Assembly (NCBI GenBank): GCA_018303825.1
Contig: JAGVXK010000020.1
Coordinates: 1-64,000, forward strand
Length of the DNA stretch: 64,000 nucleotides
Reading direction: 5' to 3'
DNA from: Candidatus Pacearchaeota archaeon
GTDB taxonomy: Archaea > Nanobdellota > Nanobdellia > Pacearchaeales > GW2011-AR1
The translations under genes were made by a program, and so were the position numbers. Under the pieces are notes generated by a model. It was not told where the DNA came from and ran no database searches. It was given only the letters and a program-made list of their open reading frames with translations. Position 1 is the stretch's first letter; every line of letters starts with the position of its first letter. This document shows, piece after piece, positions 53,995 through 60,472 of this stretch.

Positions 53995-54010
53995 TTTAAA
54001 AATGAAAAAT

Positions 54011-54598
54011 TTATTTCTGCAGGGCCATTCTTTGCGGATGACTCTTTTGTTTTTCTAATTTTGCCACATGCTTTTGCTCTTTGGCTTTTGCCTCAAATTC
54101 TTTGCTTCTCTGCTCTGCTGTTGCTGTCTCTTTTTCCTTTTCATCTTTCTTCTGCTCTTCAGTCTTTCCTTCCTGTGCTGCTGGAACTTCCCTCTTTTTT
54201 TCTTTCTTATCTTCCTTTGCCTCTTCCTTCTTTTCAAATCTCTTCAATAATTTCTCATGCTTTGCTTTCAAAAATTTGACATGTGCTGGAAAATCAACTA
54301 ATTCAACTCTTACTATGTTATCCTCTTTTACTGCTCTTACTTTTACTTTTGCTGGAGGATTTGCTCTTCCTCTGAACCAAAGTTCATTGTTTGAATATAC
54401 ATCCAACCTGACATTATTTACATCTCTATCAAGCACTTTCATGTGCTTGGCAATGAACTTCTTTATGGCTTTTATTGCCTTGCCAGTTCTCTCATACATT
54501 GGAGCTTTAAGCCACTCTTTTCTCAATGGAATTATATATTCTCTTTCCAGCTTTTTCGTTTCTGCTTTTGGTGTTTTTGTTTCTGCCATTTTATACAA
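54011..54598 (-). CDS. rpl31e: Ribosomal protein L31e with long charged tail
   Basis: EREYIIPLR, AIKAIKKFIAKHMK, LWFRG..NPP. Confidence 0.92.
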   Translation of the reverse strand: MYKMAETKTPKAETKKLEREYIIPLRKEWLKAPMYERTGKAIKAIKKFIAKHMKVLDRDVNNVRLDVYSNNELWFRGRANPPAKVKVRAVKEDNIVRVELVDFPAHVKFLKAKHEKLLKRFEKKEEAKEDKKEKKREVPAAQEGKTEEQKKDEKEKETATAEQRSKEFEAKAKEQKHVAKLEKQKSHPQRMALQK

Positions 54599-54860
54599 CC
54601 TCTGCTTCTAGCAAATCGATACCTATAATTCTTTTAATCCCTGCTAGGATGCTAGTTAAATCCTTTTCTGGAGCGATTATTTCGACTTTTGGTTTTTCAG
54701 TCTTTTGCAATATTAATCTTGCATTTTCATAGTTAAAAACAGCAGACATTCTATCGTATGAGATAGCAGTAGGATTTAGAACCCTGCCAACTACCCGATA
54801 AAATCTATCATATATTGTCTTGCTCAAGTTTATTGTCGTTACGTTTATTGTGTTTTTCAT
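54591..54860 (-). CDS. Hypothetical protein between rpl39e and rpl31e
   Basis: Abuts or overlaps both neighbours on the same strand. Confidence 0.5.
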   Translation of the reverse strand: MKNTINVTTINLSKTIYDRFYRVVGRVLNPTAISYDRMSAVFNYENARLILQKTEKPKVEIIAPEKDLTSILAGIKRIIGIDLLEAEVV

Positions 54861-54861
54861 T

Positions 54862-55062
54862 TTATCCTAGATGGGTCTTCTTGGCTCTCCTTGGTTTTAT
54901 TCTTAGTTTTGTTCTTCTCCAATGTCTTCTTTTCTTGGTAATCTGAGATGGATGAACTCTTTTTCCCTGGCCGTGCTTTCGCAGAACTGCCCAGAACGGA
55001 GCCCATTTTGTCCTTCTGTTGTGGACGCCAAGCTTTACTTTTTTTTGAAGTGCCTGTTTCAT
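54862..55062 (-). CDS. rpl39e: Ribosomal protein L39e
   Basis: WAPFWAVLR...RRHWRRTKL. Confidence 0.88.
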   Translation of the reverse strand: MKQALQKKVKLGVHNRRTKWAPFWAVLRKHGQGKRVHPSQITKKRRHWRRTKLRIKPRRAKKTHLG

Positions 55063-55478
55063 TTTGCTTCTCCTGCAAGATTTTCAAGAAATTCCTTTCC
55101 TTTAGCTGTTAATTGCCTGCCTGAATGCTTTGCTTTTACTTTTTCTGTTAATCCAGCGGAATCTGCCTGTTGTAATATCTTTCTTATTATTTTTCCTCCA
55201 GCCTTGTAAAAATGCGCTGGTTTTGCTCCTTTTCCTTTTCTGGAGCCATACCTTGTTCTCAATCTTTCTACACCAACTACTTTTTTTACATAAATCTGTC
55301 TTAATATAGAAGCAGCTCTTTTATACCAAAAGTCTGAATCAATATTTGGTCTTTTCTTGCTTGCTCCTGTTTTTACAAAATCAACCCACTCTGGCTTCTT
55401 GAATTCTGGAAGTTTCTTTAAAGCCTCAGCTAGAGAACTATTATACTTACCAGGCTCAATCATTCTTATGTCTGTCAT
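55059..55478 (-). CDS. rps19e: Ribosomal protein S19e
   Basis: PEWVDFVKTG, WYKRAASILR, GGKIIRKILQQ; ATG at 55478 preferred as start. Confidence 0.95.
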   Translation of the reverse strand: MTDIRMIEPGKYNSSLAEALKKLPEFKKPEWVDFVKTGASKKRPNIDSDFWYKRAASILRQIYVKKVVGVERLRTRYGSRKGKGAKPAHFYKAGGKIIRKILQQADSAGLTEKVKAKHSGRQLTAKGKEFLENLAGEAK

Positions 55479-55611
55479 CTTAATGTAGTAGGCCGTGCTT
55501 TGCAACACTAGATCGGCTCAAGGCCGCTAGACCCAACACTCCTTAAGAAATTTGCTTTATAAATCTATGGTTCTGGCGTGTATTTATTGCATCTTCGGGA
55601 CTTAAATCTAT

Positions 55612-56674
55612 TTAAAGAAGATACCTAGAAATAGAAACCTGCTTCAATCTTTCTTTTTTGACTTTTTGAATCTCCTTTAATATTTTCTTCCTAAGATTAA
55701 ATGAATTTGACCATTTAACATATGCTTGCCAACCTTGACAGCTTTCCATTAATTTCCAATAAGAGATCTCGCACTTTTTCAGTTCGTTTATCCTTTTTTG
55801 CATTTTTCTTATATTTCTCTTCCTTACCAATCTGAAACGATAAAAATTTCTGAATCCAACAAAGTCAGTCCCCCTTGAAAGAGGAATTATCCTTGATTTT
55901 TGAGGATGAAGTTCTATCTTCAATCTTTCTCTCAAAAAGGGGTCAATTTGTTCTTTCCATATTTCTAATTGTCTGTCAGATTCATGCAAAATAACAAAAT
56001 CATCAACATAACGAATGTAGTACTTAGCTTTCAAAATGTGTTTAACGTAATAATCTAACTTATTAAGATAAACATTAGCGAAGAATTGAGAAGTTAAATT
56101 GCCCAAAGGCATACCCTTCGGGCGTCCGCCCCCCCCCCGATTGGACTGTATTGCTAAGAATTCGGCGAATCAGCCAAATAACTTTTTCATCAGCTATTTT
56201 TCTTCTAATTATCTTTAAAAGAATTTCATGATCAACCTCTTTAAAATAATGCCTTATATCTGCTTTAAGGCAGAAAGCATTTCTCGTAAGGTTTTTTGTA
56301 ATTTTTCTTGAAAATAAGTTAAATCTGCTCAAAGCAAACAAATTGCCCTTACCAATCTGATTGGCGCATGAATCATAAATAAATTCTCTCTCAAACATGC
56401 GACTTATAACTAAGATGATAGCGTGATGAACAACTCTATCCCTAAAATCTGATTTAGAGATTACTCTTGTTTTCGGGTCTCTCAAAACAAAAGTTGTTAA
56501 TGGCCTTAGTTTATAGGTTTTATTTTTTAATTCATAATGCAAAGCAAGAAGATTTTCTATTAGGTGCTTTTCAAATTCAACAACATCTTTATGCAAGGTT
56601 TTTCCTTTTCTTGCTTTTCTCCAAGCAAGAATCAAGTTTTCCATAGAGTAGATCTTACAAAATAAACTTTCCAT
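55612..56674 (-). pseudogene. DGR reverse transcriptase split by a +1 frameshift at a G10 tract (56129-56138)
   Basis: FRDRVVHHA in frame 1; KGMPLGNLTSQFFAN and RYVDD in frame 2; G9 would give one 353-aa ORF. Confidence 0.9.
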
Positions 56675-56700
56675 ATTATGATAATTCTGGTAGCCAGAAC

Positions 56701-56791
56701 TATTCCAAAGACAGAGCCATTATCATTGTTCAGGTTCCTGTTGTTGCAGTTGAAGTTAGACCTGTTGTTCCTGTCAAGCCTGTTCAACCAG
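56701..56791 (-). repeat. DGR template repeat (TR), 91 nt
   Basis: Reads WLNRLDRNNRSNFNCNNRNLNNDNGSVFGI in the VR frame: 11 AAY codons, 31 adenines. Confidence 0.95.
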
Positions 56792-56950
56792 GCGTTATAG
56801 TCAATTTATCTTCATGTCACCACTGCTTCACGTATGTTGCAGTTGAATTTTATGGCTTAAAATAAACCTAAATATGCGCTAATAAACTAACTTGTAGTTC
56901 TGGTGCTACCAGAACCAATTTGATAAGAAATAAGGATTTTATAAATCTGA

Positions 56951-57778
56951 TTACTTTTTAAAGAAATCAGCAACCTTTCTCAGTGAAGCTGTGCCTCTCT
57001 TACCTTCAATAACACCATCTATTATAGTTAAATATTGTTTTGCCTGTCTCGGAGTATAACCACGAACTTTTGGCTCGTTAATTTGGCGCGAAGTGCCTTC
57101 GGCACTTTCCACAGAAACCCCAAAGACAGAGCCATAATCATCGCTCAGGCTCCTGTCGTTGCAGATGAAGGCAGACCTGTAGTTCCTGTCAAGCCCGTCC
57201 AACCAGTGTCCTCTTGCATAATCTTCCCCAGTTATTCTTGGCAAATAAACAGTAACTTCTGGCAATCTCAAATTCTCTGGCAATTCATTTCTTAAAAATA
57301 ATCCATATCTATTAGCTAATTCTGGACTTTCAGCTTTCCATCTTATTGTTGGATCATCAGCAAAACTATCTGTTGGAACTGGATGAGTTTTAGCCTGTCC
57401 AAGATTCAAAACCCTTTTTTGTTCTAAAGGTTTTATTTCATCTTTTTCAGCTATCTGCCTAAGTACTTGAGTAAATGGTCTCTTGCCTTTTCTTATTTCA
57501 TCAGTTAAATAAAATTCGCCTGTTCTCTGAGCTTCTACAGCTTGTTTTGCATAGGGAATAAGCGGATTAAATTCTGCTCTTGCCAGCAATATTGCTCCAT
57601 CAACAACATTAGAATCTTCTGCTGTCCAAGCTCCTCCTTCAAAATGTGTTTGATCATTAACTCCTCTTTCTAATCTATCTTCAATAAGTTCTCTTCCTGT
57701 AGAAACACGCTTATTTGCATTCTTAGCTTGTGCTAAACAATATGCCCAATTTCCTTGGTCAATTCTTTGTAATTTCAT
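56951..57778 (-). CDS. DGR target (variable) protein, probable C-type-lectin fold
   Basis: Contains the VR HWLDGLDRNYRSAFICNDRSLSDDYGSVFGV; no signal peptide or TM seen. Confidence 0.9.
   Translation of the reverse strand: MKLQRIDQGNWAYCLAQAKNANKRVSTGRELIEDRLERGVNDQTHFEGGAWTAEDSNVVDGAILLARAEFNPLIPYAKQAVEAQRTGEFYLTDEIRKGKRPFTQVLRQIAEKDEIKPLEQKRVLNLGQAKTHPVPTDSFADDPTIRWKAESPELANRYGLFLRNELPENLRLPEVTVYLPRITGEDYARGHWLDGLDRNYRSAFICNDRSLSDDYGSVFGVSVESAEGTSRQINEPKVRGYTPRQAKQYLTIIDGVIEGKRGTASLRKVADFFKK
57091..57107 (-). promoter_or_regulatory. DGR target-recognition hairpin AAGTGCC-GAA-GGCACTT
   Basis: Perfect 7-bp stem with GRA loop, 8 nt downstream of the VR. Confidence 0.85.
57116..57206 (-). repeat. 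DGR variable repeat (VR), 91 nt
   Basis: 77/91 identical to the TR; all 14 differences are at TR adenines. Confidence 0.95.
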
Positions 57779-57855
57779 ATTTTTTATAGAAATAATACCT
57801 ATTTAAACCTTTCGCTATTGTTACTATCTAATAGTTAATACAACTCATCTTACTG

Positions 57856-58110
57856 TTATACTTTATCTTTATTTTTTCCAGCTTGTCGTCTTAAAATTAT
57901 AGTAAATCCGATTATTCTGAACTCGCAATGAACATCCAGCTTGGATTGAATGGATTTTGCCATTTCCTGGATTGAATCTCTGTCTCTTCCAGAGGATTTG
58001 AGGACAGCGATTCTTATTCTTTTGTGGGTTTTGAGAGCATTATTTAATCCTTCTATTACTCCTCCCGTAATGCCATTCTTTCCTATTTGGAATTTTGTTT
58101 CTGTTATCAT
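57856..58110 (-). CDS. yhbY: YhbY/CRM RNA-binding protein
   Basis: FQIGKNGIT, THKRIRIAVLK, IIGFTIIL. Confidence 0.85.
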   Translation of the reverse strand: MITETKFQIGKNGITGGVIEGLNNALKTHKRIRIAVLKSSGRDRDSIQEMAKSIQSKLDVHCEFRIIGFTIILRRQAGKNKDKV

Positions 58111-58688
58111 ATTTTTTCTATCCTGATGCCTCCTGCGGGAAGGGCAGAAAAAAGCTCTTCCTGAGATAAAGACTCTTTAACAGAAAGCTGTATCTTAGTT
58201 ATTATTTCATCTTTTCTTAGTTTTCCTGGAAGTATCTTTAAAATGCCTTTTTTAACTGTTTTTTCTGGGACAGCTCTTAAAACTCCTTCCTGCCTTGTTA
58301 GAACTAATTCTAATGGAACGGTTACTGTTTCTACCTCTCCTAGAACCTGCCAAGTTCCAACCTTTGCTTTTCCAGGCTTATTAAGTTGGGAGGACCTAAA
58401 AATATCAACATCTGCTGTTTTTTTTCCTGATTTCCAGGCTTGGGAAAAACAGGCTGTGAAAACTGCCGTTTCCTCCAAGTCATTTTTACTGATTTTTTTG
58501 ATATTATCTAAAATTATGCTGAACGGACTTCCTGGAGAGGAAGTATGCATAACTATGAAATCTTTTTTTTCTTTCTTAGTCAAATGAAGCATCTCTTCGT
58601 TCTGGACTGCATTCTTTCCCCCAACTACCAGCTTGCCAGAATTTGTGTAAAACCACTTATATTTCTTGTAGTTGTCAATTAAACTCAT
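58107..58688 (-). CDS. NFACT-R (DUF814) RNA-binding domain protein
   Basis: YKWFYTNSGKLVVGGKNAVQNE, MHT..PGSP, ACFSQAWK. Confidence 0.85.
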   Translation of the reverse strand: MSLIDNYKKYKWFYTNSGKLVVGGKNAVQNEEMLHLTKKEKKDFIVMHTSSPGSPFSIILDNIKKISKNDLEETAVFTACFSQAWKSGKKTADVDIFRSSQLNKPGKAKVGTWQVLGEVETVTVPLELVLTRQEGVLRAVPEKTVKKGILKILPGKLRKDEIITKIQLSVKESLSQEELFSALPAGGIRIEKI

Positions 58689-58751
58689 ATTTTAGGGTAA
58701 TAAATTCAGTTATTAAACTTAGCTATTTAAAAAATATTTCCCAAAGAATAA

Positions 58752-59360
58752 TCAGCACATCGCTGACCTTATGAATCCGAGTCTCTTTATCTCAAAATGA
58801 AGATTTTGATCATAAACTGCGTCTGAAATTGGATTGGCAGTTGTTGTCTTCTCGACCTTGACTTGGAATGTGACTGGAACTTCAGCAGCGTTATCTGGAA
58901 GGTTGATAGCTATAACGTCTTTTGACTTTCCATCGCTCGGGCCAATATCATATGTTCTTGTCAATGGTTTTTGTATCCAGCTATTTAATACAGCAGATGT
59001 CAAAGCAGCCTGACCAGAATTGGCATTTATTAGTGTGAATTTATATTTTGCCTGTTCTGATGCATGAACTGCACAGGTAATATAGTTAGTCTTTCCTGGA
59101 GCAAGTTTCACAGCTTCTTCGCTCTCTCCTATGCAGGCAACTTCTCCCCCGCTGGTCCCGAATATCCTGTTTATCTCTTTATCAGCAGTATCTGAAACTC
59201 CCGCTGTTAGTCCTATTGCTTTGCACATTATACTTCTGACTAAAACCATCCCGAGAATTAGCATTGTAACACCTAAGACAATTATGATGATAGTTCCGAC
59301 AGATAATTCAATTGCTGCTTTCTTATTTTTTGTCATTTTATACTGGAAGTTGACTGGCAA
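58752..59360 (-). CDS. Pilin-like protein with class III signal peptide
   Basis: KKAAIELSVGTIIIIVLG. Confidence 0.75.
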   Translation of the reverse strand: MPVNFQYKMTKNKKAAIELSVGTIIIIVLGVTMLILGMVLVRSIMCKAIGLTAGVSDTADKEINRIFGTSGGEVACIGESEEAVKLAPGKTNYITCAVHASEQAKYKFTLINANSGQAALTSAVLNSWIQKPLTRTYDIGPSDGKSKDVIAINLPDNAAEVPVTFQVKVEKTTTANPISDAVYDQNLHFEIKRLGFIRSAMC

Positions 59361-59697
59361 CCTGCTGCTGAGTTAATGCCTGAAGATACTTCTCGCATCC
59401 TCCAAAAGCATTGCACTGTTGAATGAAATTGGACAATGCCGAGATTACCCTCGCTAGTATGAAGCTGTTAATTAACAACCCTATGAATGAAAGAATTAAT
59501 CCTGCGACCGCCCAGCTCGTTTTTCCTTTTCTAATTTGAATAAAGCCAAATATTACCCCCAGTACTGACAAAACAAAGCCAACTGCCGGAGAAAAAACTG
59601 CAAATATTATCAAGAAAGCAATTAGAACGCTCAAAACTCCGAAGATAAAAGAGACTAACCCAAATGAGTTATCTACCATTTCCCCTTTTTTATCCAT
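59338..59697 (-). CDS. Small membrane protein (DUF4190-like)
   Basis: SFIFGVLS...GVIFGFIQ...AVAGLILS. Confidence 0.65.
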   Translation of the reverse strand: MDKKGEMVDNSFGLVSFIFGVLSVLIAFLIIFAVFSPAVGFVLSVLGVIFGFIQIRKGKTSWAVAGLILSFIGLLINSFILARVISALSNFIQQCNAFGGCEKYLQALTQQQVASQLPV

Positions 59698-59752: not shown

Positions 59753-60472
59753 CTAATTAGCCCTTAATTTTGCCAGAGCTTCATTTTGAATTTGCCTAAT
59801 CCTTTCTCTAGTCACATGGTAGATTTTTCCAATTTCTTCAAGTGTTTTTTTCTTCCCATTTAGTCTAAGAAATCTTAGCTCCAAAACCTTTCTTTGTTGG
59901 GGGTTCAATTTTTTAAGAAGATTATGCACAAAAGCAGAATCAGATCTTTCACATATATCATCGTAGGGCATTCTTGCGTGAATATCTGTTATTAATGTCT
60001 CCATTGACTCCCCATCATCGCCGGTTGGTTCATCTATGGAAACAAATGTAACTGGTCCGTCTTTTGGATGATATTTTGCCAGATATCTTCTTCTTTCTTT
60101 TTTCAATGCATTAAGAATATTTTTTCTTACATAATACCTTGCATAGGTACTCAATTTTGCTTTTTTCTTATTGTATGGATTATACCTATCAATTCCTTCC
60201 ATTAATCCTTGATTGCCCTCGCTTATTAAGTCCAATAGTGGAACCCCTCTATAGGTATATTTTTTAGCGACATTCACAACAAGCTTCAAATTGCGATTAA
60301 TTAATTCTCTTCTCGCATTTCTGTTCCCCCTCATCTTTTTTACAGCGAGTGCAAATTCTTCCTCTCTTGTTAAAAGAGGCCCAGATATCTGGGAAAGATA
60401 GACATCTAATCCATCATATGCCCTAGACCTTCTTGCTCCATCATATAATATTTTTGACATAAAAATTGACAA
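59753..60472 (-). CDS. Bacterial-type sigma-70 family factor (ATG at 60460 likely start)
   Basis: Region 1.2 YLSQI..LLTREEE, region 2 NLKLVVNVAKKY/DLISEGNQGL/STYA, region 4 TLEEIG...TRERIRQI. Confidence 0.9.
   Translation of the reverse strand: MSIFMSKILYDGARRSRAYDGLDVYLSQISGPLLTREEEFALAVKKMRGNRNARRELINRNLKLVVNVAKKYTYRGVPLLDLISEGNQGLMEGIDRYNPYNKKKAKLSTYARYYVRKNILNALKKERRRYLAKYHPKDGPVTFVSIDEPTGDDGESMETLITDIHARMPYDDICERSDSAFVHNLLKKLNPQQRKVLELRFLRLNGKKKTLEEIGKIYHVTRERIRQIQNEALAKLRAN

Follow-up and report, generated by a model that had tools for sequence, protein, structure and literature searches.

The retroelement and its interrupted reverse transcriptase

The window analyzed here is a stretch of 64,000 nucleotides (positions 1 to 64,000 of contig JAGVXK010000020.1, assembly GCA_018303825.1) from a Candidatus Pacearchaeota archaeon. 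Near one end it carries, wholly on the minus strand, a diversity-generating retroelement (DGR), an insertion of about 2.3 kb in the 0.8-Mb genome of this DPANN archaeon. The element combines a target gene containing a variable region (VR), a template region (TR), and a reverse transcriptase (RT) gene that is interrupted by a run of ten guanines, G10 (Table 1). An earlier note on this stretch, made from the sequence alone, had recognized the DGR and its RT by the motifs LGNLTSQ and YVDD. The DGR reading is borne out by the RT, the adenine-only TR/VR mismatches, the AvpA-like target, the sequence motifs at the ends of the repeats and an adjacent hairpin, and both RT motifs are present; the note had, however, overlooked the frameshift, and the RT is split by G10 rather than encoded by a single open reading frame (ORF).

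The N-terminal RT frame crosses the G tract into the wrong frame and ends at a stop at 56075, and direct translation meets stop codons after the residues SGGG. A tract of nine or twelve guanines (G9 or G12) would restore an uninterrupted RT of 353/354 residues. The read-through protein with one base skipped (P0002, 353 residues) includes GMPLGNLTSQ, YVDD and a full thumb; it matches the RT of the Bordetella phage DGR (bRT; 8UB7_A) over residues 4-327 with an E-value of 1.8e-40 (best group II intron RT, 2e-17), and matches the profile phrog_1423 with an E-value of 1e-112. Relative to bRT, the glycines encoded by the tract form a four-residue insertion in the loop just before the GxPxGxLTSQ motif, i.e., in an insertion-tolerant loop. 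No other G/C run of the 806-kb genome reaches this length, and a zero-order model predicts 0.035 runs of at least ten. An identical C-terminal half is encoded by 14 contigs or assemblies; 13 of these, from JGI and ENA assemblies made on different samples, read G10, one reads G11 and none is in frame (tallied by exact-protein look-ups, which gave 12 contigs with the G10-type N-terminal fragment and one short contig reading G10). Apart from the tract, the G11 contig, ERZ27254845, matches the G10 element exactly over 6,028 nt. As no assembly of the element has the RT in frame, the cassette would at present be off or at best leaky.

The TR and VR constitute the top direct repeat of the interval 54000-59500, with an 87-nt core of 87% identity and 11 mismatches, every one of which falls at a TR adenine (P = 7.7e-7 for all falling on the 28 adenines among the 87 positions). 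The earlier note had reported 14 mismatches, all at TR adenines (14/31), in an ungapped alignment of 91 nt (56701-56791 versus 57116-57206). That count is reproducible, and the realignment, which the note had named as a check for non-adenine changes, shows mismatches at TR adenines exclusively. However, the three additional mismatches occur at alignment positions 87, 88 and 90, where the homology stops (VR CTTTGGGGTT, TR CTTTGGAATA). Because they represent the fixed difference between the initiation of mutagenic homing (IMH) element and its TR counterpart (IMH*), the clean mutagenesis record amounts to 11 sites rather than 14. The count of 11 diversifiable AAY codons given in the note agrees with ours; nine of these are altered in the VR, which occupies the 3' portion of the target gene, and the codon changes between VR and TR are 11 non-synonymous and one synonymous. 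The exact target protein is found on 13 contigs, its 90% cluster has just one member, and no VR variants are on record; such a VR, devoid of visible diversification, would fit an RT that is off.

The target protein, P0001, has only about 20 homologs and yielded no match to Pfam, NCBIfam or PHROG and no relative in a sequence search of the PDB. In the alignment of its homologs, a conserved scaffold is followed by hypervariable columns exactly at the VR and then by a conserved SVFGV...SAEG stretch. An AlphaFold (AF2) model built from this alignment has a predicted local distance difference test score (pLDDT) of 76, with residues 1-190 mostly at 80-98 save for three 10-residue blocks at 65-78, and with low values in the VR. 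The sole significant PDB match of the model is AvpA (5IOO), with a Foldseek E-value of 3.4e-4 and probability of 1.00 and a VIA Z-score of 15.4 (root mean square deviation 2.8 Å over 183/209 residues), the next-best Z-score being 4.8. By this model, the target is an AvpA-like C-type-lectin protein. In AvpA itself, about 46 residues follow the VR as a tail that the structure does not resolve, and the IMH encodes an RFxGV strand (PMC5006420). The tail of P0001 (window positions 56951-57075) is modeled as a basic two-helix hairpin, which exists in two sequence types among the homologs and has no specific structural match; it may be a substitute for the accessory protein Avd, an anchor or a partner-binding part.

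A contrast between TGGGGT (IMH) and TGGAAT (IMH*), together with hairpins bearing a GRA triloop within the target gene, has been described for the DGRs of the DUSEL4 nanoarchaea (PMC4372165). Here, the 7-bp GAA-loop hairpin that the earlier note had placed after the VR is indeed present, 8 nt 3' of the VR and inside the target ORF, where it encodes the conserved SAEG; GCCGAAGGC-type hairpins occur at the equivalent position in relatives. Taken together, the adenine-only TR/VR mismatches, the RT closest to bRT 8UB7, the AvpA-like target model, the IMH/IMH* pair and the GRA-loop hairpin identify the element as a DGR of the DUSEL4/AvpA-type nanoarchaeal kind (Paul 2015; Handa 2016), as does the recovery of a TR/VR pair with the recurring motifs from 40 of the 47 related loci tested.

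Table 1. Features of the retroelement and its flanks, listed in the direction of the minus strand (window coordinates)
Feature	Position	Strand	Basis or remark
YhbY/CRM-domain gene, upstream flank	57856..58110	-	Pfam PF01985
TATA-like box TTTAAATA	57800..57807	-	Read from sequence; 21 nt upstream of target ATG, leaderless geometry
Target gene, 275 aa (P0001)	56951..57778	-	ORF; modeled AvpA-like C-type-lectin fold, aa 1-218, and two-helix tail, aa 234-275
VR	57120..57206	-	Codons for target aa 191-220; ungapped 87-nt repeat of TR
IMH-like 3' end of VR: adenine-free block GGCTCTGTCTTTGG then GGT (TGGGGT motif)	57117..57133	-	Sequence
VR-downstream hairpin AAGTGCC-GAA-GGCACTT	57091..57107	-	DNA fold, z -2.05; 7-bp stem, GAA loop
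TATA-like box TTTATAAAA	56937..56945	-	Read from sequence; 21 nt upstream of 5' hairpin
5' hairpin of putative DGR RNA, GGTTCTGGT-AGC-ACCAGAACT	56896..56916	-	RNA fold; core common with hairpin 3' of TR
TR	56705..56791	-	28 A in 87 nt; 11 AAY codons in VR frame
IMH* TGGAAT at 3' end of TR	56702..56707	-	Sequence; PMC4372165
Hairpin TTCTGG-CTA-CCAGAA directly 3' of TR	56685..56699	-	10 nt before RT start codon
RT N-terminal frame (fingers, motifs 1-2), 199 aa	56075..56674	-	ORF; RVT_1 positions 8-107
G10 homopolymer (C10 on + strand), frameshift site	56129..56138	-	Sequence
RT C-terminal frame, 166 aa, +1 versus N frame	55612..56112	-	GMPLGNLTSQ, YVDD, thumb; RVT_1 positions 119-203
Ribosomal protein S19e gene, downstream flank	55059..55508	-	Pfam PF01090, E 4.5e-42

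Simple-sequence tracts in related reverse transcriptases

About 100 related loci were fetched, the N- and C-terminal halves of their RTs were placed by tblastn, and 70 distinct RTs were classed by tract and phase, a tract being defined as at least seven G or at least six GA units at the homologous site. The relatives come from metagenome-assembled genomes (MAGs) of Nanoarchaeota, Woesearchaeota and Pacearchaeota, and the tracts observed are G7-G12 or (GA)6-16. The 28 tract-less RTs comprise 27 in frame, one at +1 and none at +2; the 35 with a tract divide into seven in frame, 14 at +1 and 14 at +2; and the seven with a short tract (G5-6 or (GA)4) include four in frame, one at +1 and two at +2. 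Presence of a tract is thus associated with loss of frame (Fisher P = 5e-10, computed on rows that are related and not independent), and the 7:14:14 distribution of phases does not differ from uniform (chi-square P = 0.25). In a quick tree, the tract-bearing and tract-less RTs are interspersed, and L045, the nearest RT relative of our element, is in frame with an interrupted run, GGCGGGCGGG.

The out-of-frame genes are otherwise well preserved: 26 of the 28 tract-bearing alleles have no other stop in either half, and the remaining two have one stop each. The ratio of non-synonymous to synonymous substitution rates (dN/dS) among the out-of-frame alleles is 0.05-0.17 in both halves, with dS saturated, and both halves of the RT are under purifying selection. 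Further, in four pairs of near-identical alleles the tract accounts for all or almost all of the difference. The G11 allele L031 (out of frame) and the G12 allele L083 (in frame) align over 6,471 nt with no mismatches; the other pairs are L025 (G11) and L060 (G10), L076 ((GA)13) and L078 ((GA)11), and L052 (G9) and L054 (G11). L025 additionally differs from the otherwise identical L060 by a triple substitution in the RT (AAA to GCT at L025:2921-2923), 50 nt upstream of the tract, which may be an assembly variant or a product of micro-recombination; there are no VR changes between these two alleles.

Within the 352 kb of fetched DNA, all G/C runs of at least nine and all GA runs of at least six units lie in or at the RT gene. 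Three relatives that lack the usual tract have long G runs elsewhere, namely, in the N-terminal half (L038:2809, G11), in the C-terminal half (L088:2052, G9) and immediately 5' of the start (L099:1324, G9), such that the association of tracts with the RT extends beyond one loop. TR/VR pairs were recovered from in-frame and out-of-frame loci alike, mostly with all or nearly all mismatches at TR adenines. The contrast between GG followed by GGT in the VR and GG followed by AAT in the TR is seen in most relatives, and the GAA-type hairpins recur.

Two of the relatives call for separate comment. The sole tract-less out-of-frame RT, L047 (Ga0209542_10020408), has apparently lost the tract along with CGAACG (it reads CCAATCG and then CAAGAAAGG), and is a candidate for either a truly dead allele or an assembly collapse. 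L033 (CAZMGC010000068.1), a 3.1-kb contig with an archaeal-type DGR RT (G11, in frame), belongs to a MAG labeled "uncultured Gammaproteobacteria," which is probably a binning error.

Insertion site, predicted RNA and genomic surroundings

The element resides in the conserved operon NFACT-R–YhbY–S19e–L31e. In at least eight related genomes the genes for NFACT-R, YhbY, S19e (then a small ORF) and L31e form an unbroken series in which YhbY and S19e are separated by 20-130 nt, and at the present locus this gap measures 2,348 nt and is occupied by the DGR. Homology to L047 and L045, two other DGRs in different contexts, extends from about 57840-57842 to a point within the 3' end of the RT gene. Given the short gap in relatives and these shared boundaries, the cassette is a discrete chromosomal insertion. 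The nearest neighbors encode S19e, L31e, the YhbY/CRM protein and the NFACT-R protein, and further genes encode Cbf5/TruB, dehydroquinate synthase, an alkylation-repair enzyme, an HMGL-like (homocitrate/isopropylmalate-type) synthase and the primase small subunit. Profile searches with Pfam and PHROG returned no phage family among the surrounding genes, in agreement with the earlier description of the element as chromosomal and without phage genes nearby. A bacterial-type sigma-70 gene with regions 1.2, 2 and 4 lies 2 kb from the DGR (59753-60472, minus strand) in this archaeal genome.

Both TATA-like boxes lie at the same distance from what they precede. The box TTTAAATA is a putative promoter of the target gene itself, and the matching 21-nt geometry points to TTTATAAAA as a putative promoter of a TR-RT transcript. 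The RNA of 56660-56950 (291 nt, target stop to RT start) has a predicted minimum free energy of -70.4 kcal/mol (z = -3.2 versus shuffles), and in the predicted DGR RNA the flanks of the TR pair over about 20 bp, enclosing it. This region is 96% identical to L047:2160-2466, compared with only about 75-78% at the DNA level for the target and RT genes, which reflects either a strong constraint on the DGR RNA or a recent exchange of the TR module. The hairpin directly 3' of the TR has homologous counterparts in 26 relatives, with compensatory changes in three of its six pairs; 19 cells are changed on both sides as against 7.5 in shuffles, with slid controls lower. The covariation, for a hand-specified stem of 6 bp, is modest, and RNAalifold predicted no consensus structure for the region 3' of the TR. 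A long-range duplex between the two hairpins flanking the TR was also considered and found to be unsupported, with no compensatory pair in L047, the sole informative close relative.

The assembly (806 kb in 23 contigs, about 35% GC) is 86% complete. A genome-wide search for remote VRs, which the earlier note had advised, was run over all of it with the TR (blastn) and the target (tblastn) and recovered the local VR and TR only, hence no remote VR or second target. As to an accessory protein, the 160 nt between target and TR hold no ORF, and the neighboring ORFs are housekeeping genes. Profiles for MutS (PF00488) and NucS/EndoMS (PF01939) matched nothing in this 86%-complete genome, i.e., no known mismatch-repair route was detected; such an absence would favor tract instability. 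Elsewhere in the genome there are two DGR-RT C-terminal fragments of 50-58 residues (G000:C19:37233-37433, L120:3255-3428; and G000:C13:71036-71191, L121:3040-3189), with 74% and 62% identity to the thumb end of the RT and no N-terminal part, TR, VR or target nearby; these look like fossils of older DGR insertions. The second-longest G/C homopolymer of the genome, a G9 run (G000:C11:8724-8732, L122) directly before GGAGGATG, falls in the ribosome-binding/start region of a 131-aa ORF, which makes another slippage-controlled gene possible, and G8 runs occur inside ORFs at C4:21375 and C5:33206.

With the DUSEL4 Nanoarchaeota DGRs (PMC4372165) and AvpA (PMC5006420; 5IOO) the element has in common the order of target-VR, TR and RT; TGGGGT versus TGGAAT; a GRA-triloop hairpin in the target ORF; an orphan target with a predicted AvpA-like C-type-lectin fold, a conserved IMH-encoded xFGV strand and a tail of about 45-55 residues after the VR; and as host a small-genome DPANN archaeon from groundwater-type metagenomes. 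Unlike in those systems, the target has just 13% identity to AvpA and no sequence-level PDB match, there is a single cassette rather than at least four per genome, no Avd-like ORF lies between target and RT, and the RT is interrupted by G10, a feature with no mention in PMC4372165 or PMC5006420. With the BPP-1 DGR (mtd-VR, avd, TR, brt; bRT 8UB7 series) the element shares the RT homology over nearly the full length, an adenine-specific TR-to-VR record, an IMH with a downstream hairpin and a C-type-lectin target with the VR at the ligand-binding face. It differs from it in being chromosomal and archaeal rather than phage-borne, in that Avd was not found, in a triloop rather than a tetraloop, in a very short TR–RT spacer of about 30 nt, and in the four glycines that the tract inserts before GxPxGxLTSQ.

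A possible switch on hypermutation

The pattern among the relatives is the signature of a contingency locus, because tracts of different repeat chemistries occupy a conserved position, all three phases occur, alleles that have lost the tract are in frame, the two halves are intact and selected, and indels are confined to the tract. Likewise, we find a tract that is unusual for its genome, length polymorphism in otherwise identical alleles, and a gene that is intact and under purifying selection. The contingency loci of Campylobacter, Neisseria, Haemophilus and Helicobacter similarly have intragenic runs of 9-12 G or (GA)n, length polymorphism, three phases, an otherwise intact ORF and "locked-on" relatives with interrupted tracts. 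Unlike in these bacteria, the gene concerned encodes a mutator enzyme, the DGR RT, where theirs is a surface or restriction-modification gene; the host is archaeal; and switching is read here from the comparison of sequences alone. We propose that the G10 tract is probably a heritable and reversible DNA-level on/off switch of the DGR RT that is currently off. A little less firmly, we favor the extension of this proposal to the DGRs of DPANN archaea, in which a poly-G or (GA)n tract in the RT would be a built-in, second-order bet-hedging device that turns hypermutation stochastically on and off in rare cells.

By analogy with the family, an RNA containing the TR would be reverse-transcribed by the RT of the element with misincorporation at template adenines, and the cDNA would replace the VR, with the IMH (TGGGGT) and the GAA-loop hairpin as guides. 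As a result, up to 11 AAY codons in the AvpA-like ligand-binding face might be re-randomized, for about 1e16 possible proteins. With G10, the catalytic half of the RT is out of frame, and this off state would mean that there is no mutagenesis. As a hypermutable simple-sequence repeat, the tract could gain or lose units by slipped-strand events, and in a minority of cells a change to G9 or G12 would switch the RT on in a heritable and reversible way. The population would then retain a working VR while a few lineages hypermutate. In every assembly seen, the tract is in an off phase.

Several observations weigh against this proposal. Reversibility within a lineage is read from the distribution of phases among relatives, and a distribution as even as 7:14:14 is also expected from neutral drift if function were independent of the DNA phase, for instance, through RNA or ribosomal slippage. 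No in-frame allele of this element exists among the proteins of at least 292 residues in a collection of 5.8 billion proteins, in which the best full-length match to the C-terminal half of the RT has 81% identity, and the presence of one length in 13 of 14 assemblies indicates that a switch here is either a rare event or one that consensus assemblies fail to capture. The competence of so minimal a cassette is also in doubt, as the Avd profile PF05635 gave nothing above an E-value of 0.17 in the 86%-complete genome. An alternative to the switch is leaky recoding, whereby slippage of RNA polymerase, the ribosome or both on the long G or GA tract would supply a small, constant fraction of full-length RT irrespective of the DNA phase, making the tract a throttle that holds RT at a very low level. 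Runs of at least nine are known sites of polymerase slippage. The even phases and the dominance of G10 suit leaky recoding as well as they do a switch, the presence of both +1 and -1 states also speaks for it, and selection on both halves fits continuous low-level use. Nevertheless, the tract-less relatives, with 27 of 28 in frame, imply that a single in-frame polypeptide is the selected form; moreover, tract length varies at the DNA level between otherwise identical alleles, and ribosomes slip poorly on dinucleotide (GA)n tracts. We regard leaky recoding as an unlikely though serious alternative; it is compatible with a DNA switch, and both may act. A fixed, programmed +1 frameshift, suggested by the first five relatives, all of which needed +1, was dropped as -1 states proved equally common.

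The remaining alternatives appear considerably weaker. If the element were dying, with the frameshift as the initial lesion of a pseudogenized RT and the TR/VR record as a fossil of former activity, one would understand why 14 of 14 assemblies are out of frame, why the VR is monomorphic, why Avd was not found and why two short, related RT C-terminal fossil fragments lie in the same genome. However, the tract is the only lesion in otherwise intact halves, and a single slippage event would reverse it. The TR and its flanks have kept their 96% identity to L047 against the much lower figure for the genes, and the recurrence of the pattern in 28 out-of-frame relatives, at the low dN/dS values given above, is incompatible with repeated independent decay; we accordingly rate decay as improbable. 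That the gene is truly in frame and the tract misread in sequencing or assembly merits thought, as runs of ten or more G are error-prone on several platforms and one assembly does read G11 instead of G10. Against this, the 13 contigs of different origin agree on G10 in both JGI and ENA assemblies, the 5.8-billion-protein collection has no in-frame gene call, and the relatives are off frame both ways and include (GA)n tracts with a length difference of 4 nt, atypical of base-calling errors, leaving such an artifact with hardly any credence. Just as implausible is a split enzyme, in which the two ORFs are translated separately, with the conserved ATG of GMPLGN as the start of the C-terminal half, and their products together form an active RT. 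The ATG is suitably placed at the start of the C-terminal ORF, which overlaps the N-terminal ORF by 38 nt, and the methionine codon is common in the family; yet this methionine is equally present in in-frame, tract-less relatives and is missing from at least two out-of-frame ones (Thr in L023, Leu in L097), and the junk tail of the N-terminal fragment would differ by phase. We know of no split RT of this kind.

The DGR itself is a new example of a type published since 2015 (PMC4372165, PMC5006420). In the literature on DGRs together with phase variation, homopolymers, simple-sequence repeats or frameshifts, we found no paper linking DGRs to simple-sequence tracts or to phase variation. To our knowledge, there is no known dedicated regulator of DGR mutagenesis, and a mutator that is always on would keep destroying working variants. 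About four-fifths of the tract-bearing elements would be missed or misclassified by automated DGR surveys that accept only an uninterrupted RT ORF. If our proposal is true, a slippage-prone tract in the RT, conserved in position and not in sequence across many ultra-small archaea, would render hypermutation itself phase-variable. As a bet-hedging device, such a tract would be a genetic regulator of DGR activity without a described precedent, conserved throughout a large clade, by which a ligand-binding or surface protein would be diversified only in a subpopulation while most cells keep the proven variant.

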